64,000 nucleotides of DNA from an uncultured Chloroflexia bacterium (GTDB lineage: Bacteria > Chloroflexota > Limnocylindria > Limnocylindrales > CSP1-4), in NCBI GenBank assembly GCA_963813535.1, contig CAWEZH010000002.1, positions 544,001-608,000 on the forward strand. Direction: 5' to 3'. How positions within the stretch are numbered: position 1 is the stretch's first letter; each line of letters starts with the position of its first letter. The notes under the pieces were generated by a model. The model searched no databases. It was not told where the DNA came from and saw nothing but the letters and a program-made list of their open reading frames with translations. Positions 42,618 to 50,309 of the stretch are shown in pieces. The position numbers were made by a program, and so were the translations under genes.

Positions 42618-43478
42618 TCATCCAGCGCGCGACCCGACGATCGAGAACGACAGGGGGATCCGGCCACGCTCCTCCGGCCGGACGTCACGGTGACCGCCCC
42701 ACCAGTCGACCGGATGCTCCGCGACCTGCTCGATCGCGATGCCACCACGCAGGAGTGCCGTGACGACCTCTCCGAGCGTCCATGCACGGGCGAACTTCTC
42801 GTGCTGATCGTCGTCGGCGATCGACAGCCGATCGATGTATTCGGGCGCCCAGCCTCGCGACGCCTCGGGACCGGCGAAGTAGTCGTAGTCGGTCGCGATC
42901 CACGACCCGTCGGGACCGACGTCGAACAGCCACTCGGCCGGATGACCGTCGAACAGCACGAACCGACCACCGGGCGCGAGCAGCCGGCAGACCACGCGCG
43001 CCCACGCGTCGAGATCCTGCAGCCACATGAGCGCGCCACGGCCGGTGTAGACGAGGTCGGCCGTGCCATCCAGGTCCGCTGGCGTGTCGAGCACGTCGGC
43101 CTCGACCCAGATCGCCGGCGCGTCGACCGCATCGCTCAGACGACGTGCGAGGGCGAGCATGCGGGGACTGAAGTCGACGCCGACGACCTCGTCGGCACCG
43201 AGATTCCACAGCGACAGCGTGTCCCGCCCGCCGGCACATTGGAGGTGGATCGCCCGGCGGCATCGCCCCCGGATGTCCCCGATCAACGCGGTCTCGATCG
43301 GGAAGAGATTGGACCCGCCACCGCGGATCAGCTCGACGGCCTCATCGAACCAGCCGTCATACCGTTCCGCGGCCTCATCCCATGCGGAGCGGTTGGCCCG
43401 ATGCATGGCGCGTACGTCCTCCCGCTCGCTGTCGCTGGCCGGCCGGACATGCGGCTCGTTCGTCGTCTCCTCGTCCAC
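42618..43478 (-). CDS. Class I SAM-dependent methyltransferase
   Basis: HLQCAGGRDTLSL, GVDFS, DLVYTG, LLAPGGRF. Confidence 0.88.
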   Translation of the reverse strand: MDEETTNEPHVRPASDSEREDVRAMHRANRSAWDEAAERYDGWFDEAVELIRGGGSNLFPIETALIGDIRGRCRRAIHLQCAGGRDTLSLWNLGADEVVGVDFSPRMLALARRLSDAVDAPAIWVEADVLDTPADLDGTADLVYTGRGALMWLQDLDAWARVVCRLLAPGGRFVLFDGHPAEWLFDVGPDGSWIATDYDYFAGPEASRGWAPEYIDRLSIADDDQHEKFARAWTLGEVVTALLRGGIAIEQVAEHPVDWWGGHRDVRPEERGRIPLSFSIVGSRAG

Positions 43479-43504
43479 GCGCCGAGTCTATGCTGCCGAT
43501 GTAG

Positions 43505-43533
43505 TTGACAGCGCAACGACCTCGGGGTACCGT
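43505..43533 (+). promoter_or_regulatory. Sigma-70 promoter TTGACA-N17-TACCGT for pirin
   Basis: Consensus -35 with 17-bp spacer; overlapped by a GTTG-N6-CAAC inverted repeat. Confidence 0.7.
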
Positions 43534-43560
43534 GAACGGACCACAAGGAGCCACGACCCC

Positions 43561-44568
43561 ATGCCCGCCATCGTTCCCGACGACATCGCCATCCTGCCGA
43601 GGATCCCGACCCCGGATCCCGCGATCGCACGTGAGCGGCCTGTCCGCAGCATCACGCTCGCTCCCCACGGTCTGGAAGGAGAGGGCTTCCCGGTTCGGCG
43701 CGCCTTCGCGGGTGTTGCGCTCGAAGACCTCGACCCGTTCATCCACCTCGACCAGATGGGTGAGGTCGAATATGCCCCCGGCGAAGCGAAGGGCACGCCC
43801 TGGCATCCGCACCGCGGCTTCGAGACCGTCACGTACATGATCGACGGCGTCTTCGAGCACGCCGACTCAAACGGCGGCGGGGGAGTGATCACCAACGGCG
43901 ACACCCAGTGGATGACGGCGGGAGCCGGCATCCTGCACATCGAGAAGCCGCCGGACTACCTCGTCCGCAGCGGTGGCTTGTTCCACGGGTTCCAGCTGTG
44001 GGTGAACCTGCCCGCGGATCAGAAATGGGCGGCTCCCCGCTACCAGGACATCCGTGCGAGCGAGGTGGCCCTGTCCTCGACGCCAGATGGGGGCGCCCTC
44101 ATCCGCGTCATCGCGGGCGAGGTCGCCGGTCAGGCCGGCCCGGGCTCGACGTACAGCCCGATGACCCTCGTCCACGTGACGCTGAGCCCGGGCGCCCGCC
44201 TCTCGCTGCCTTGGCGACCCGACTACAACGCGCTGATCTACGTCATGAACGGCGATGGCACCATCGGAACCGAGGGTCGGCCTGTCGGGATGGGGCAGCT
44301 GGCGGTCCTCGGAGCGGGGGATGCGCTGACGGTGACTGCGGCAAACCAGCAGGAAAGCCGCAGCCCCGCGATGGACGTGCTGATCCTCGGCGGTAGTCCG
44401 ATCCGCGAACCCGTCGCCTGGATGGGCCCGTTCGTGATGAACACGCGCGAGGAAGTGATGCAGGCGGTGGCCGATTACCAGGCCGGCCGGCTGGGCAGCA
44501 TCCCCGCCGTCCACAGCGCGCCGACCCACCTCGTCGAGACGACGACGCCGACCGCGACAGAGCGCTGA
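43561..44568 (+). CDS. Pirin family protein
   Basis: HPHRGFETVTY, QWMTAGAGILHIE, FQLWVNLP, GPFVMN. Confidence 0.95.
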   Translation: MPAIVPDDIAILPRIPTPDPAIARERPVRSITLAPHGLEGEGFPVRRAFAGVALEDLDPFIHLDQMGEVEYAPGEAKGTPWHPHRGFETVTYMIDGVFEHADSNGGGGVITNGDTQWMTAGAGILHIEKPPDYLVRSGGLFHGFQLWVNLPADQKWAAPRYQDIRASEVALSSTPDGGALIRVIAGEVAGQAGPGSTYSPMTLVHVTLSPGARLSLPWRPDYNALIYVMNGDGTIGTEGRPVGMGQLAVLGAGDALTVTAANQQESRSPAMDVLILGGSPIREPVAWMGPFVMNTREEVMQAVADYQAGRLGSIPAVHSAPTHLVETTTPTATER

Positions 44569-44714: not shown

Positions 44715-45905
44715 GTGACGGTGGGCGCCCGCGCCGTGCCGGTGGCGGTCGTTGCGGGGCTGTTCATCGCCTCGCTCGCGATGCGGCCACAGATCCTCGC
44801 GATCGGCCCGTTGCTGCCGTTGATCCGGACAGATCTGGGGCTGCCAGCCGGCATCGCGGGTCTCCTGACCACCATCCCTGTCCTGTGCATGGGCGTGTTC
44901 GCGCCGGCCGGACCACGTCTCGCCGCGCGGTTCGGGGCGTCGACGGCGTTCGCCGCCTGCCTCGTCGCGATCGTCGGCTTCGGTGTGGCTCGTGCGCTGG
45001 CGCCGAGCGTCCCGCTCCTGCTCCTGGGGACGCTCGGGATCGGCATCGCGATCGGCTCAGCGGGCGCCATCCCCTCGATGATCGTCGCCCAGCGCATGCC
45101 CACACGGCCGGCGCTCGGCACCGGTGCCTATGCAGGCGGCATCGTGGCGGGCTCGACGCTGGCGTCCGGACTTGCGGTACCGCTTGCTGTCGACGACGAC
45201 TGGCGCCGGGCACTCATGATCATCTCGCTGGCGTCGCTGCTCTCGGTCGTGGCCTGGCTCGTGCTCGTCGGCGCCGACCAACGCGATCGGGTCGTGGGTG
45301 CTGTCGCCAGGCATCTGCCCTGGCGCGATCCGACCGGCTGGTTGCTAGTCGTGGTATTCGGGCTCCAGTCGGTCCTGTTCTACGGGGTCGTGTCGTGGCT
45401 GCCGAACGCCTTCGTCGAGCGTGGCTGGAGCGCGATCGATGCCGGCGCCCTCATCGCGGTGTTCAATGGCGTCGGCCTGCTCACCACGGTCGGCCTGCCG
45501 CTGGTGGCCGACCGGCTCGGGTCGCGACGGATCCAGCTGCTCGTGTCGTCGGCGGTCGCGGTCGTCGCCCTTCTCGGTGTGATCGCGGCACCGGATCTCG
45601 CGTTCCTCTGGGTGGCGATCCTCGGCCTGTCGCTCGGCGCCGTCTTCCCACTCGTGCTGACACTGCCGCTCGATGTCGCCGACGAGCCGGCGCGCGTCGG
45701 TTCGGTGGCGGCATTGATGCTGCTCGGTGGCTACGTCCTGTCGTCGACGGGACCGGTCGTCCTCGGCGCCGCGCGTGACGTGACGGGCGACTTCGGCGCC
45801 AGCATGTGGATCCTCGTGGGGATCGCGGTCGCGCTGGTCGCCTCCTGCCTGACGCTATCGCCCGACCGCCTTCGGCGCGGCATCCATCGAGAGATCGCGG
45901 CGTGA
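44715..45905 (+). CDS. MFS transporter (CynX/NimT-like)
   Basis: RPQILAIGPLL, GLLTTIPV, FGLQS..FY..WLP; many TM helices. Confidence 0.8.
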   Translation: MTVGARAVPVAVVAGLFIASLAMRPQILAIGPLLPLIRTDLGLPAGIAGLLTTIPVLCMGVFAPAGPRLAARFGASTAFAACLVAIVGFGVARALAPSVPLLLLGTLGIGIAIGSAGAIPSMIVAQRMPTRPALGTGAYAGGIVAGSTLASGLAVPLAVDDDWRRALMIISLASLLSVVAWLVLVGADQRDRVVGAVARHLPWRDPTGWLLVVVFGLQSVLFYGVVSWLPNAFVERGWSAIDAGALIAVFNGVGLLTTVGLPLVADRLGSRRIQLLVSSAVAVVALLGVIAAPDLAFLWVAILGLSLGAVFPLVLTLPLDVADEPARVGSVAALMLLGGYVLSSTGPVVLGAARDVTGDFGASMWILVGIAVALVASCLTLSPDRLRRGIHREIAA

Positions 45906-45963
45906 CGACAGCCACCGCGAGGCGTTCCAGCGTTCTCACACCGTGGCGAAGAGCGTTGCCAGT

Positions 45964-45992
45964 TTGCAATCCAGAGCGCTGTCATGGACAAT
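45964..45992 (+). promoter_or_regulatory. Putative promoter TTGCAA-N17-GACAAT
   Basis: Hexamers with 17-bp spacing directly upstream of the leader ORF. Confidence 0.55.
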
Positions 45993-46002
45993 GCCGCGGC
46001 AG

Positions 46003-46074
46003 ATGAACCGCTACCACGTCCACCACCACTGCATGTGTCATGCCGCTGCCGAGCAGGGCAGGTGGTGTCGATAG
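46003..46074 (+). CDS. Putative attenuator leader peptide MNRYHVHHHCMCHAAAEQGRWCR
   Basis: Hand-translated 23-aa ORF with clustered His/Cys/Met codons, followed by hairpins and a terminator. Confidence 0.7.
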   Translation: MNRYHVHHHCMCHAAAEQGRWCR

Positions 46075-46116
46075 GCGTGCGTTCCTCGTAGATCCGCACG
46101 CCGGTCCAACCCCCGA

Positions 46117-46145
46117 ACCCCTGCCGACGGCAGGGGTCTTTTGTT
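46117..46145 (+). terminator. Intrinsic terminator in the sulfurtransferase leader
   Basis: ACCCCTGCC-gac-GGCAGGGGT then CTTTTGTT. Confidence 0.85.
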
Positions 46146-46179
46146 ACGCCGAATCACGACCACCACAGAGGGACCCAGC

Positions 46180-47517
46180 ATGACGACCGACCAGACCAGG
46201 ACCATCGCGCTGGACGAGTTGCGTGATCGCCTCGAGGATCCTTCACTGACGCTCCTCGACGTACGGCCGCTCGCCGCCTACAACGGCTGGCGCCTCGGCA
46301 CCGAGGCGCGCGGCGGGCACATCCCCGGTGCAGCCGCGTTCCCGCTGGAGTGGCTGCAGACCGTCGACGAGCCCGAGATCGCCCGCCTGTTCGCAGGCAA
46401 GGGCGTCACCCCGGACCGGGACGTGGTCGTCTACGGCTACGGCGCAGACGACGCCGCGACCCTGGCCGATCGGATCGAGCGCTTCGGCATCCCGGACGCG
46501 CGGGTCTTCGAGGCCGGGTTCGCCGAATGGGCCAGGGATCCGTCGCTGCCGGTCGAGAAGCTGCCGAAGCACGAGAAGCTCGTGCACATCGAGTGGCTCC
46601 GGCAGGTCCTGGCGGGCGAGCGGCCGGAGGCGGCACCGCCCGGCGACTTCCTGTTGTTCCACGTGAACTTCGGCGTCCCGGAGGAGTACGCAGAGGCGCA
46701 CATCCCGGGCGCGATCTATCTCGACACCAACACGCTCGAGGACCCGGCCGATTGGAATCGACGCCCGCCGGAGGTCCTCGATGCCGCGATCCGCGCGCTG
46801 GGCATCACCAAGGACACCACGGTCGTCGTCTACGGCCGCGACACCGAGGGCCAGGCGAACGAGAAGTGGCCCGGCCGTCGCGCGGGCCAGATCGCCGCCA
46901 CACGGGCGCTGATGATCCTGACCTACGCAGGCGTCGAGGACGTGCGACTGCTCGACGGCGGCTACGACTGGTGGGTCCGCGGAAGCAACCCGGTCGAGAC
47001 CATCATCCGCGAGCCATCGCCCGTCGCGGACTTCGGCGCGGTCATCCCGGTCCGCCCGGAGGTCATCGTCGACATCGGTGAGGCCAAGGAGATCATCGCG
47101 GACCCCGACGGCGCGGCCCTCGTGAGCGTGCGCACGTGGCGCGAGCACATCGGCTCCGTGAGCGGCTACAACTACATCGGACCGGCCGGACGGATCAAGG
47201 GCGACGTCTGGGGCAACTGCGGCACGGACGCGTATCACATGCAGCACTACCGCAACGTCGACAACACGATGCGGGCGTATCCGGAGATCACGGCGAACTG
47301 GACCGAGGCGGGGATCGTCCCCGAGAAGTGGATCGCCTTCTACTGCGGCACCGGCTGGCGTGCGAGCGAAACGTGGTTCTACGCGTTCCTCCAGGACTGG
47401 CCGCGTATCGCCGTCTATGACGGGGGCTGGTTCGAGTGGAGCCAGGATCCGATGAGCAACCCGATCGAGATCGGGGTGCCGGACGTCGAGACACCTCGAG
47501 ACGTGTACGCCGCCTGA
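46180..47517 (+). CDS. Three-domain rhodanese sulfurtransferase (YnjE-like)
   Basis: Two HIPGA motifs, active site YCGTGWRAS, YDGGWFEWS. Confidence 0.9.
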   Translation: MTTDQTRTIALDELRDRLEDPSLTLLDVRPLAAYNGWRLGTEARGGHIPGAAAFPLEWLQTVDEPEIARLFAGKGVTPDRDVVVYGYGADDAATLADRIERFGIPDARVFEAGFAEWARDPSLPVEKLPKHEKLVHIEWLRQVLAGERPEAAPPGDFLLFHVNFGVPEEYAEAHIPGAIYLDTNTLEDPADWNRRPPEVLDAAIRALGITKDTTVVVYGRDTEGQANEKWPGRRAGQIAATRALMILTYAGVEDVRLLDGGYDWWVRGSNPVETIIREPSPVADFGAVIPVRPEVIVDIGEAKEIIADPDGAALVSVRTWREHIGSVSGYNYIGPAGRIKGDVWGNCGTDAYHMQHYRNVDNTMRAYPEITANWTEAGIVPEKWIAFYCGTGWRASETWFYAFLQDWPRIAVYDGGWFEWSQDPMSNPIEIGVPDVETPRDVYAA

Positions 47518-47559: not shown

Positions 47560-48666
47560 GTGACGGCCGAGCGGCTGCGGATCGGCCTCGTCGGTTGCGG
47601 GGACGTGGCGCGCCGGCACTACCTGCCGGCGCTCGCCGACCTCGCCGATCGCGTCCGTATCGTGTCGTGCATGGACGTGCGGCTCGATGCGGCCGACGCC
47701 CTGGTCGTCGACATCGCCTCCTGGTCGCCGGGTGCGCGCGCATTCGACGACCTCGACGCGATGCTCGCCGATGGTGGTCTGGATGCGGTCATCGACCTGG
47801 CGCCCGCGACGCGGCACGGGACAGTGAACCGGGCGGTCCTCGACGCCGGCGTCGCGCTCTACTCGGAGAAGCCGATCGCGGGCACGCTCGAGGAGGCGGA
47901 CGGCCTCATCGAAACGGCGAGGCGCGGCGGCGTGCCGTTCCTGTGCGCTCCGGGCGTGGCCGTCACGCGCCGGTTCGCGTGGCTGGCCGATCTCGTTCGC
48001 TCAGGACGGTACGGGCGAGCGACCCTCGTCGTCGCCCATCACGCCGATCCGGGTCCGGCGGCCTGGCGCGAATACACGGGCGACCCGCGGCCGTTCTACG
48101 GCAGGGGTGTGGGACCCGTCATCGACCATGGCATCTACCGACTCCACGGCATGACGATGCTGCTCGGACCCGTCCAGCGCGTGCAGGCCATGGGCGCGAT
48201 CGGCACGCCGACGCGCCACGTTCGCGGTGGACCGCTCACGGGCCAGACGATCCCCGTCACGACACCCGACCATGTGCTCATCAATCTCGAGTTCGCGAAC
48301 GGTGCCCTCGGTCAGCTCCTCGCCAGCTTCGGCACGGCTGCGACGCTCGCGCCGTGGATGGAGGTCCACTTCGAGCGTGCCACGGTCAGCTTCGGCGGCC
48401 AGTCCCACGAGAAGGACGCTCCGGTCAGCCTCTACGTCGACGACGAGTCACCGGCCGCTCGCGAGGGCTGGGCCCACGGCGTCGAGATCCCGGTCGATGA
48501 CGTTGCGGTGGTCGAAGCCGGGATCCGTCACTTCATCGACGTCCTGTCCGGCGACGCCGAGCCGATCCTGACCGCCGAGCACGCACGTCACGTGCTCGAC
48601 ATCATCGTGAAGGCGTATGCGTCGATCGAGGATGGCGCCTCGCACGCGACCGAAACGACCTTCTGA
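47560..48666 (+). CDS. Gfo/Idh/MocA oxidoreductase
   Basis: IGLVGCG, EKPIA, DHGIY. Confidence 0.88.
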   Translation: MTAERLRIGLVGCGDVARRHYLPALADLADRVRIVSCMDVRLDAADALVVDIASWSPGARAFDDLDAMLADGGLDAVIDLAPATRHGTVNRAVLDAGVALYSEKPIAGTLEEADGLIETARRGGVPFLCAPGVAVTRRFAWLADLVRSGRYGRATLVVAHHADPGPAAWREYTGDPRPFYGRGVGPVIDHGIYRLHGMTMLLGPVQRVQAMGAIGTPTRHVRGGPLTGQTIPVTTPDHVLINLEFANGALGQLLASFGTAATLAPWMEVHFERATVSFGGQSHEKDAPVSLYVDDESPAAREGWAHGVEIPVDDVAVVEAGIRHFIDVLSGDAEPILTAEHARHVLDIIVKAYASIEDGASHATETTF

Positions 48667-48674
48667 CGGACGCC

Positions 48675-50309
48675 TCAGGCGCGCTCGAGCCGCCAGGCTT
48701 CGACGGGCTCACGCTTGCCCTTCACCAGGACCGGCCCGAGCTCCTGGCCGACGCGGCCCTCGCCGAGCGCTTCCCACGTCGTCCGTCCGACGATGATCTG
48801 ACCCGGTTCGGCGACCGTCATCAGCCGCGCCGCCGTATTCGTCGTGTCCCCGATCACCGCGAAGCTCCGGCGCTCGGCAGAGCCGACATCACCAAGGACC
48901 GCCGGACCGGTGTTGACACCGACGCGGAAGACCGGCCAGCCGGGCCGGCTCGCAGCGATGGGACGTGCCGCGTCCACGATGGCACGCGCCGTGCGCGCAG
49001 CCCGGAGTGCATGATCGGGCTGGTCGCCGACCGCGTTGAAGATGGCCATGATCCCATCGCCCGCGAAGTGTTCGATGACCCCGCCGGCAGTGTCGATCGC
49101 CGGGACGACGGCTGCCCAGAAGGCATTGAGCATCTCGAGGACCTCGGTGGGCGGGCGCGTCTCACTGAACGGGGTGAAGCCCGCGAGATCCGCGAAGACG
49201 ACGCTCACGATGCGCTCCTCACCGGGCAGCGCGACGCCAGGCGTGCCACGCCGTCTGATCCGGTCGGTGACCACCGACGGCAGGTACGGCTGGAACGATG
49301 CATCGAGCCGGCGGAGCTCCTGGGCCGTACCGGCGAGCAAGGCGACCTCGTCGCTGGTGGCGCCCTCATCACGGAGCTGGTCGAGCACGGGATCGACCGG
49401 TCGACCGTCGGCCTGCGCGGAGGCCACGTCGGCGATCGCCTTCGCATGCCAGCGATCGATCTGGGTCAGCGTCGTCTCCAGGTAGAGCCCGCCGAAAGCG
49501 CCGGTCAGCGAACCGCTACGTCGGTACTCCTCGCGCGCGCCCAGGGCGATGAGTCCGAAGGCCGCCAGCATCAGGATGTGCCACTCCCACCAGCTCAACT
49601 GCCAGTTCCGGCTGACGACGACGGCGATCATGGCTTCGGCGAGGAGCACCAGCGCCACAGCGATGGTGAGCAGGATCGGACCGCCGCGCTGGCGGTACAT
49701 CCGGTAGGTTCGCCCCGCCGCGAAGACATAGAGCACGACGGCGACGATGCCCAGGATCGTCAGGGCGCCCACGCCCTCGGTGACCGGCGGCGGTCCGTCG
49801 AGCGGTGGCAACCGGGCGAGTGACAGGATGCCCCACACCACCATGAGCCCGAGGAGCCCGGCCAGGATCAGCGGCCGTGCGCGAAGGACGATAGGCCCTC
49901 CGGGACCGGCGATGGAACTCGTCGAGGCCGCTGCGAAGATCGCAGCGAGGCCAAGACCCAGCGGGGTGGCGACCGCGAACCCCGCGTTCGGCGTCTCCAG
50001 GAGGACGCCGGGCGTGGCGAGGGCATGCAGACCGAGGAAGCCGGCCGCCGACAGGAAGGCGAACGAGATCAGGACCAGGCGGGCATCGCGGAAGCGCCCT
50101 GCGGCGACGTTGGTGACATACGCCAGGGCGACGCTGACAAGGGCGGTGCTGAGCACCAACCAGAAGTGGCTCGGATGGTGCTCCCACTCGAGGTCCATCT
50201 CCGGCCGTCCGAGGAGCATCGCCAGTCCGACGAGCGGCAGCGTGATCGCGACCGGGACGGTCCACGGGACACCTCCCGGCTTCTCCCGTGCCTTGGCATC
50301 CGTCGCCAT
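48675..50309 (-). CDS. Membrane-bound class III nucleotidyl cyclase
   Basis: Multi-TM N-terminus; FADLAGFT, FAGDG, RVGVNTG, GDTTNTAARL, VKGK. Confidence 0.9.
   Translation of the reverse strand: MATDAKAREKPGGVPWTVPVAITLPLVGLAMLLGRPEMDLEWEHHPSHFWLVLSTALVSVALAYVTNVAAGRFRDARLVLISFAFLSAAGFLGLHALATPGVLLETPNAGFAVATPLGLGLAAIFAAASTSSIAGPGGPIVLRARPLILAGLLGLMVVWGILSLARLPPLDGPPPVTEGVGALTILGIVAVVLYVFAAGRTYRMYRQRGGPILLTIAVALVLLAEAMIAVVVSRNWQLSWWEWHILMLAAFGLIALGAREEYRRSGSLTGAFGGLYLETTLTQIDRWHAKAIADVASAQADGRPVDPVLDQLRDEGATSDEVALLAGTAQELRRLDASFQPYLPSVVTDRIRRRGTPGVALPGEERIVSVVFADLAGFTPFSETRPPTEVLEMLNAFWAAVVPAIDTAGGVIEHFAGDGIMAIFNAVGDQPDHALRAARTARAIVDAARPIAASRPGWPVFRVGVNTGPAVLGDVGSAERRSFAVIGDTTNTAARLMTVAEPGQIIVGRTTWEALGEGRVGQELGPVLVKGKREPVEAWRLERA

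Follow-up and report, generated by a model that had tools for sequence, protein, structure and literature searches.

A putative leaderless, cysteine-responsive transcription attenuator upstream of an EanB-like sulfurtransferase gene in a family of uncultured Chloroflexota

Introduction

The leader of a sulfurtransferase gene was analyzed in a stretch of 64,000 nucleotides (the window, meaning the whole stretch) from an uncultured Chloroflexia bacterium. Based on comparison with the leaders of its relatives, it is probably a leaderless, ribosome-mediated, cysteine-responsive transcription attenuator of an EanB-like sulfurtransferase gene. The switch, which most likely turns the gene on under cysteine shortage, would be of a known type, leader-peptide attenuation, found here in an unexpected bacterial group. 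Its elements had been proposed earlier from the letters of the window alone (the original prediction), and all of them are present where that prediction placed them.

The classical attenuators of the trp, his, leu and thr operons of enterobacteria (model summarized in 10.1101/834739) and of the trp operons of Corynebacterium and Streptomyces (actinobacterial trp attenuators are treated in PMC1262725) share two features with the present locus, as far as these sources describe them. The first is a short leader carrying codons for the sensed amino acid, putatively translated here; the second is a terminator before the operon with a mutually exclusive antiterminator set by the position of the ribosome, as is predicted here. 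The classical leaders are led by a Shine-Dalgarno sequence, whereas the present one is of the leaderless type and has two non-adjacent regulatory codons. Its 1:2 element is very weak, and the untranslated leader is predicted to read through rather than to terminate. A conserved extra hairpin (H2) is nested in the predicted antiterminator, and the target is a sulfurtransferase gene, not a strict amino-acid biosynthesis operon.

To our knowledge, cysteine-sensing leader peptides have experimental support in mycobacteria only, where the control shown is translational, and a few other cases are predicted. According to the account in 10.1101/834739, polycysteine leaderless small open reading frames (sORFs) of mycobacteria (Ms5788A/Rv0815A and others) control sulfur and cysteine genes, including the operon of the thiosulfate sulfurtransferase cysA2, which agrees with the statement in the original prediction that Cys-rich leaderless sORFs regulate sulfur genes in these bacteria. 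The same account gives Ms5788A as shown to act translationally, its poly-Cys codons pairing with the Shine-Dalgarno region and no terminator being involved, and takes at least 2 consecutive Cys codons, up to 8, as the mark of such frames. Shared with the present locus, on that description, are a leaderless-type sORF as first cistron, Cys codons as sensor (putatively so here), a sulfur target and a possible nucleotide-level constraint on the non-Cys residues. The window differs in having CxC rather than consecutive Cys codons, an intrinsic terminator and a predicted antiterminator. There is also no sequence similarity, the phylum is another one (Chloroflexota), and only one such locus was found in the genome of the window.

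Two predicted groups of Cys-codon leaders are closer in some respects. The uORFC-8-2 motif upstream of cysS in Rhodobacterales consists of a predicted upstream frame with Cys codons and an intrinsic terminator stem with a U run, and has been read as ribosome-mediated attenuation on comparative evidence only, in the passages of PMC8632094 that concern it. A Cys-codon frame, an intrinsic terminator and an attenuation inferred by comparison are thus common to both. In uORFC-8-2, as those passages describe it, tandem Cys codons 14-15 lie inside the first stem, the target is cysteinyl-tRNA synthetase, the hosts are alpha-proteobacteria and the sequence is unrelated; its start is not described there as leaderless. 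Cys leader peptides have also been predicted for cys/cbs operons of Mycobacterium, Propionibacterium acnes and Bifidobacterium longum (PMC1262725). These are likewise short upstream frames with Cys codons put forward by comparison, but with Cys runs near the stop; the authors found no terminator hairpins for them and suggest Rho dependence, whereas the present leader has a terminator and shares no sequence with them. Leaderless genes have been predicted in 4 of 12 Chloroflexi genomes in the survey excerpted from PMC3160421. A search of full texts returned no paper joining the Limnocylindr- lineage with leaderless genes, and other literature searches gave nothing on the lineage.

Elements of the leader

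The following features were identified upstream of the sulfurtransferase gene.

45964 to 45969, plus strand: -35-like hexamer TTGCAA, of putative function; hexamers of the TTGCAA, TTGTCA and TTGCCA types stand at the equivalent site in relatives.
45987 to 45992, plus strand: -10-like hexamer GACAAT, 17 nt after TTGCAA and 10 nt before the ATG of the sORF.
46003 to 46074, plus strand: leaderless-type sORF of 23 codons plus TAG, MNRYHVHHHCMCHAAAEQGRWCR, with its ATG at 46003 and its TAG at 46072-46074.
46030 to 46038, plus strand: putative regulatory Cys codons TGC-ATG-TGT (CxC), conserved in the alignment of 65 leaders.
46046 to 46050, plus strand: segment 1 candidate CUGCC, a weak partner of GGCAG at 46057-46061.
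46053 to 46068, plus strand: segment 2, made up of GCAGGG (46053-46058) and CAGGUGGUGU, the predicted antiterminator strand within the 3' end of the sORF.
46074 to 46102, plus strand: hairpin H2, GGCGUGCG / 13-nt loop / CGCACGCC, of 8 bp, its first base being the last base of the stop codon.
46103 to 46116, plus strand: C/A-rich linker, which pairs with GGUGG of segment 2 in minimum-free-energy antiterminated folds; the alignment is gappy here.
46117 to 46145, plus strand: intrinsic terminator ACCCCUGCC-GAC-GGCAGGGGU followed by CUUUUGUU, a 9-bp GC-rich stem and a T run.
46167 to 46182, plus strand: Shine-Dalgarno sequence AGAGGGA and ATG (at 46180) of the regulated gene.

A scan of the window placed the terminator-like hairpin itself at 46117-46137, followed by CTTTTGTT. 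The sORF has no Shine-Dalgarno sequence, while that of the enzyme gene is clear, and motifs of the GAGGGA or GAGGA type also precede the start of the regulated gene in relatives. The T-tract is separated from the ATG of the enzyme by 34 nt; such a gap would leave no room for a separate promoter, so the gene appears to rely on read-through.

Taken by itself, the window sequence holds no leader feature above chance, and its significance comes from conservation. One terminator-like site was found in 2.8 kb against 0.5 expected in shuffles, and the z-score of the leader fold was -1.5. No Rfam family matched the window leader (45700-46400, searched to E = 10); the best sub-threshold match was NsiR1, with 21.3 bits against a cut-off of 39 (E 0.1).

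Two RNA-library contigs from different studies cover part of the leader: one runs from 46009 to 46191, across the terminator, and the other from 46012 to 46175. In RNA runs X16 and X19 no contig lay on 45400-46008 or past 46191, and at a contig depth of about 3 these data say nothing on transcript ends or abundance. Runs X17 and X20 gave just partial, less similar pieces within the gene body. All that the contigs establish is the presence of the leader and of a read-through form in RNA libraries, and their support is weak.

Conservation of the small frame and its codons

Leaders were compared in a model-guided alignment (A4) of 65 leaders, 64 of them distinct, from the genus of the window and other genera of its family; loci of relatives are labeled with L-numbers. 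The covariance model was derived from 38 distinct leaders of the same genus, residue statistics of the leader peptide from 62 distinct sequences, and the background for Cys, His and codon usage from the long open reading frames of the window's own genome (G000, 92.9% complete).

The 23-amino-acid sORF without Shine-Dalgarno sequence in the original prediction, together with its conservation in relatives, is borne out by the alignment. An ATG-started frame of 21-29 codons, reaching from the promoter to just before H2, is kept in 64/65 leaders, while the other two frames are open in 21/65 and 0/65. The exception is L167: a 1-nt difference 3' of its Cys cluster (NCCCC) changes the frame, and translation would continue past the terminator. 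Either genuine variation or a misassembled C run may lie behind it. Hexamers of the nAnnnT type (GACAAT, CACACT, CACAAT, CAGAAT etc.) stand 8-10 nt 5' of the ATG in 60 of the 65 leaders and 6-11 nt 5' of it in 62. With the hexamer 8-10 nt from the ATG, the 5' untranslated region would be roughly 0-4 nt long and leave no room for a Shine-Dalgarno sequence. All 38 leaders of the genus have 47, 50, 53 or 56 nt between ATG and motif, indels thus coming in threes, and the residues N-terminal to the Cys cluster are almost unconstrained in the same set. A frame kept through 3-nt indels and a promoter-adjacent start look, by comparison of these leaders, like the signature of a translated, leaderless-type sORF. 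The stop codon stands directly before H2 in most rows of A4 (columns 46-48, by reading, untallied); its position differs in L012, L158, L170, L173 and L175.

The second Cys codon is conserved in 64/65 leaders (TGT in 62) and the first in 59/65 (TGT 42, TGC 23). Each leader peptide has 2-5 Cys, whereas Cys makes up 0.6% of codons genome-wide. Most clusters are CxC, and some relatives have CxCC or CCxC; consecutive Cys codons are absent from the window, which has Cys-Met-Cys, and only some relatives have CC. Conserved Cys, Met and His codons had been expected upstream of orthologous genes: the Cys codons answered this expectation, His and Met did not, and the middle codon of CxC, which in the window is the Met of the predicted stalling site, varies freely. 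In the leaders aligned, the Cys cluster is the sole family-wide conserved coding feature of the peptide.

The second Cys (A4 columns 9-11, window 46036-46038) is UGU in 62/65 leaders, though UGC makes up 83% of the Cys codons genome-wide. The explanation is either selection for a slower, wobble-read codon or an RNA contact made by the U.

The 3' half of the frame behaves differently. The C-terminus AEQGRWC (C.C....AEQGRWC) is strongly conserved within the genus and lost in other genera, where L168 has QGRRRP, L162 has GRSWN and L170 reads the conserved nucleotides in another frame. GCAGGG hardly varies (columns 27-32, each conserved in at least 58 of 65 leaders), also where peptide or frame differs (L168, L170, L162), and the conserved positions use rare codons (AGG, 4.5% of Arg codons; TGT, 17% of Cys codons). 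Since GCAGGG persists with rare codons while the C-terminus changes, this half appears to be constrained as RNA, and the Cys codons as codons.

RNA structure and the predicted switch

The strong intrinsic terminator before the gene was upheld by the alignment and is the best-conserved part of the element: over 64 distinct leaders the paired cells amount to 98%, and 4/7 pairs show rare compensatory changes. H2 covaries, with compensatory changes in 5/7 pairs (e.g. U-A to C-G in 19 leaders); 91.7% of its cells are paired, and 0/500 shuffles reach its covariation score.

The pairings of the original prediction all exist in the window (CCACCAC with GGUGGUG, and GGCAGG-GGU with ACCCCUGCC), and its G-rich segment can indeed pair with the 5' arm of the terminator. 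Its segment 1, in contrast, is not family-wide. The candidate CACCACUGC, with its His-His-Cys codons, is confined to the close clade of the window and absent outside it. The family-wide candidate for a hairpin of segments 1 and 2 is the weak CUGCC:GGCAG, paired in 85.6% of cells (64 distinct leaders) with few compensatory changes. For the antiterminator, GCAGGG (46053-46058) can pair with CCCUGC (46119-46124) in 96.9% of cells (register A). The alternative register B (GGCAGG-GGU:ACCCCUGCC) was set aside as less good, with 87.8% paired.

The distance from the start of the second Cys codon to GCAGGG is 17 nt in almost all leaders (alignment columns 9 and 27). Stalled ribosomes protect RNA downstream of the A-site codon by a distance established by toeprinting, which for the window gives protection to about 46048-46050. 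In folds that masked a ribosome positioned on the second Cys, with the terminator's 3' arm still to be transcribed, the terminator arm paired with segment 2 in 38/38 leaders of the genus and 64/64 of the family; with the ribosome at the stop codon, the terminator formed in 37/38 and 63/64, respectively. At least 6 arm bases were paired in 58/64 native leaders compared to 432/1280 shuffles.

The following sequence of events is proposed. The promoter (45964-45992) would start the RNA on the ATG at 46003 or a few bases 5' of it. Because the RNA would begin next to the ATG, a ribosome could load without a Shine-Dalgarno sequence and translate the 23 codons. With Cys-tRNA plentiful, the ribosome would reach the TAG at 46072, abut H2 and cover both segment 2 (46053-46068) and the 5' arm of H2. 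The terminator (46117-46145) would then fold, and transcription would end before the gene. With Cys-tRNA scarce, the ribosome would stall with the Cys codons (46030-46038) in its A site and its leading edge at about 46048-46050. Stalled at the second Cys (46036-46038), it would cover CUGCC and leave GCAGGG free to capture the emerging CCCUGC (46119-46124) before the 3' arm of the terminator is made. H2 and the pairs between GGUGG and the linker would stack inside the antiterminator, and RNA polymerase would read into the gene.

The attenuation layout of the original prediction is therefore retained in part: leader frame, Cys codons, terminator and stall geometry appear to fit it by comparison, and the 1:2 element is weak. 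What the aligned leaders directly support is the set of parts, the conservation of these and a coding constraint on the Cys codons; the transcription start site, ribosome stalling, a kinetic choice of fold and the physiological signal are inferred.

Weighing of the attenuator and its alternatives

A number of observations weigh against a cysteine-responsive attenuator. Some concern the folds. Changes in GCAGGG:CCCUGC are one-sided and mostly wobble-compatible, with no compensatory double changes. At least 4 arm bases pair in 478/640 composition-matched shuffles of segment 2, a control that is uninformative because shuffled G-rich segments still pair with the C-rich arm, and the mean energy of the antiterminator has a z of only about -2 against shuffles. 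The masked folds came out as the model predicts for the stall and the stop, but at equilibrium the terminator wins in 52/64 leaders despite the stall mask, so the switch must be kinetic. Truncated RNA free of ribosomes also makes the antiterminator, in 33/38 leaders of the genus and 52/64 of the family, which makes the classic 1:2 "super-attenuation" element a weak one; the default without ribosomes is predicted by these folds to be read-through, unlike in the trp leader. Others concern the codons and the transcript. Cys codons number just two in the window copy and are not adjacent, L006 and L156 retain just one Cys at the site of the cluster, and an RNA contact, not coding, could account for the near-exclusive UGU at the second Cys. 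The RNA-library contigs begin at 46009 and 46012, neither covering the ATG. Finally, one Cys-cluster leader in G000 gives no regulon-level support within that genome, and metagenome bins are the only form in which the organisms are known.

The alternative that survives best, though we regard it as unlikely, is a translation-coupled attenuator that reports a signal other than cysteine, such as translation capacity, His or Arg supply, or a nascent-peptide or redox effect at CxC. Under this explanation the antiterminator would open each time the leader ribosome is slowed for any reason, and in the folds it does form as soon as segment 2 lies uncovered, by whatever means. Of the residues before the first Cys, 15.6% are His (80/513; window 46006-46029) against 1.9% genome-wide, with His runs recurring in two separate clades, and Arg accounts for 18% of the same residues; these enrichments overstate the case because kin are not independent. 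Stalling at His codons, as the original prediction had allowed, is difficult to reconcile with the peptides themselves, only 36/62 of which have at least one His before the first Cys; at least two are found in 21/62 and none in 26/62, and Cys alone is positionally conserved across the family. The richness in CAC, ACC and CGC is explicable by a C-rich 5' part complementing the G-rich segment 2. In the window the His codons form CCACCAC, the partner of GGUGGUG (CCACCAC:GGUGGUG), which offers an RNA-level reason for His.

Metal sensing by the HxHHHCxCH peptide, raised in the original prediction as another possibility, was rejected: the motif is clade-specific, and neither it nor the QGRWC C-terminus is retained in other genera. 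His or metal sensing and a functional micropeptide are alike disfavoured because His run, Met codon and QGRWC all lack conservation across the family.

A riboswitch-like or protein-controlled terminator and antiterminator, in which a ligand or an RNA-binding protein would stabilize one fold and the frame would be incidental, is improbable. Such control could draw on the extreme conservation of GCAGGGCAGGUGGUGU-NNN-UAGGCGUGCG within the genus and on the covariation of H2, which resembles that of a structured RNA, and the weak 1:2 element leaves room for another factor. The conserved bases, however, all lie in stems with alternative partners, while the loops and the linker vary freely and GGUGGUGU varies across the family, so that nothing resembles the conserved unpaired core of an aptamer. 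In 64/65 leaders the frame, its promoter-adjacent start, the Cys codons and the stop position are kept through 3-nt indels, and the Rfam search to E = 10 gave no match.

An independent gene for a Cys-rich micropeptide, with its own promoter and terminator and with the sulfurtransferase expressed through leaky read-through only, is very improbable, for although the peptide is strongly conserved within the genus and two contigs from RNA libraries overlap the leader, nothing of the peptide but the Cys cluster persists family-wide while the C-terminus changes or shifts frame (L168, L162, L170), the rare codons and fixed third bases at conserved positions mark selection on the RNA and not on the protein, and the downstream gene always follows the element and has no room for its own promoter.

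The cysteine-responsive attenuator remains the preferred reading, a probable one that comparison supports well.

Occurrence in relatives

In the genus of the window the element precedes the orthologous rhodanese gene in 24/29 loci. The covariance model found exactly one strong copy in the window's genome (118.6 bits). In a survey of 151 genomes from 49 genera of the family, which includes one match in G164 judged by score alone, it matched 40 genomes and 20 genera with false matches still included. Of 32 matches inspected, 26 were real, each directly before an EanB-like gene, and 6 weak ones were false; the latter (L174 and L176-L180, E 3e-6 to 7.5e-4) lay in coding sequence or were without the parts. 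The corrected count places the element in about 34/151 genomes and roughly 15/49 genera sampled, with one copy per genome, always immediately 5' of the EanB-like gene.

An exact-pattern scan of one genome per species returned at least 118 stretches, with 24 real ones among the matches listed, the pattern being too loose. Among the real matches listed, 21 carried titles: 19 were named 'uncultured Chloroflexia' or 'Candidatus Limnocylindrales', 1 'Anaerolineaceae' and 1 'Verrucomicrobiia'. These titles make the host a Limnocylindrales-type lineage of Chloroflexota and not an actinobacterium.

At L015 a degenerate leader lies about 130 nt before the gene start. Promoter and terminator are kept, and there is no sORF, no segment 2 and little of H2, a pattern resembling a deletion that runs from the start codon to the stop codon.

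Within G000 no other Cys-cluster sORF with a terminator was found among 298 terminator-like sites (34 of them before genes), and its three PF01053 genes are without such a leader. Two genes of this genome outside the window, at C3:480021 and C2:1455486, encode Cys/Met enzymes dependent on pyridoxal phosphate (PLP) and have a -10-like hexamer (TAGCAT and CATCAT) 6-7 nt before the ATG with no Shine-Dalgarno sequence; by eye they look like leaderless mRNAs. They are two of the three strong PF01053 genes in G000.

The putatively regulated gene and its neighbours

The two genes downstream of the leader on the same strand were as follows.

46180 to 47517, plus strand: EanB-like triple-rhodanese sulfurtransferase of 445 amino acids, with three Pfam Rhodanese domains.
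47560 to 48666, plus strand: GFO/IDH/MocA oxidoreductase (Pfam), possibly co-transcribed with it.

The enzyme had been named YnjE-like. Three rhodanese domains and a match to the YnjE entries 3ipo and 2wlr (E 6.6e-88) accord with that name, but the protein is nearer to EanB: its best matches in the PDB are EanB entries (E 2.6e-119 to 3.5e-117, residues 9-434), with roughly half of the aligned positions identical by eye. The stretches FYCGTGWRASE (with the CGTGWR active-site loop) and SGYNYIG (with GYNY) align with the EanB chain. The catalytic Cys of the loop is presumably Cys412, and the Tyr of GYNY Tyr353, in EanB numbering. The CGTGWR loop, which we take to occur in YnjE too, does not discriminate between the two.

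Entry 6KU1 is the bacterial ergothioneine synthase EanB, as identified in 10.1101/2024.04.10.588849. No match to PF10017, the EanA/EgtD-type methyltransferase that forms histidine betaine, was found in G000, and among 61 genomes of the genus none scored above the cut-off, with 2 weak sub-threshold matches. As this partner was not found in the genomes searched, the protein is filed as EanB-like and not as an ergothioneine synthase. In the words of one passage of PMC9516567, "Many EanB-like enzymes ... have no known function".

Downstream of the enzyme, the GFO/IDH/MocA gene is found in the window and in 3/10 same-genus downstream open reading frames scanned (L003, L007, L008); an MFS_1 transporter gene stands there instead in L013 (2937-4187) and L014 (2848-4206). 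A gene for a CynX/NimT-type MFS transporter lies upstream in the window (44715-45905). Further downstream, at 48675-50309 on the minus strand, is an adenylate/guanylate cyclase with a MASE3-like sensor domain. The pirin open reading frame at 43063-44568 has about 200 extra N-terminal residues as listed, and its true start is probably further in.

A second leader in relatives

A second, unrelated leader (type 2) was identified in relatives. It consists of a promoter-adjacent GTG or ATG start followed by a structured region and an intrinsic terminator, and its frame is conserved as ..SW(N/D)MCMRWRPRR.. (nucleotides ATGTGTATGCGCTGGCGGCCCCGCC). The motif occurs in 44/301 genomes and 11/49 genera of the family, a reversed control pattern giving 0 matches, and was absent from G000 in a motif scan. 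Rfam gave no match at gathering score for 10 loci and none at E of 0.5 or less for 3 loci. The type-2 leader precedes EanB-like paralogues in L026, L028 and L029, with further loci at L187-L198. The 8 other genes scanned downstream of it comprise 6 for Cys/Met PLP enzymes, 1 for a family-3 solute-binding protein and 1 for a beta-carbonic-anhydrase-like protein.

This context places EanB-like genes, by genomic association, in a sulfur amino-acid regulon in relatives, and the type-2 leader hints at a wider ribosome-read regulon in the family. A family-wide ribosome-read sulfur regulon with at least two unrelated leaderless sORF/terminator leaders (types 1, CxC, and 2) is an unlikely proposition.

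Implications

With its clean and conserved anatomy, the leader lends itself to reconstruction as a reporter. For the many EanB-like triple-rhodanese proteins it offers a regulatory clue, in that the gene here appears to be wired to cysteine shortage, and the paralogues that share a leader with Cys/Met biosynthesis genes in relatives place the enzyme in sulfur acquisition. If the family-wide regulon, unlikely as it is, proved real, the EanB-like enzyme, whose closest solved relative makes ergothioneine, would be a sulfur scavenger induced by cysteine starvation in organisms in which no hercynine-forming methyltransferase was found, and it might strip sulfur from environmental compounds of the thiohistidine type rather than build them. 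The leader would extend the cysteine-sensing principle to an uncultured soil family of Chloroflexota, joining a leaderless start to a classical intrinsic terminator, and such leaders could help to annotate sulfur metabolism in metagenome bins.

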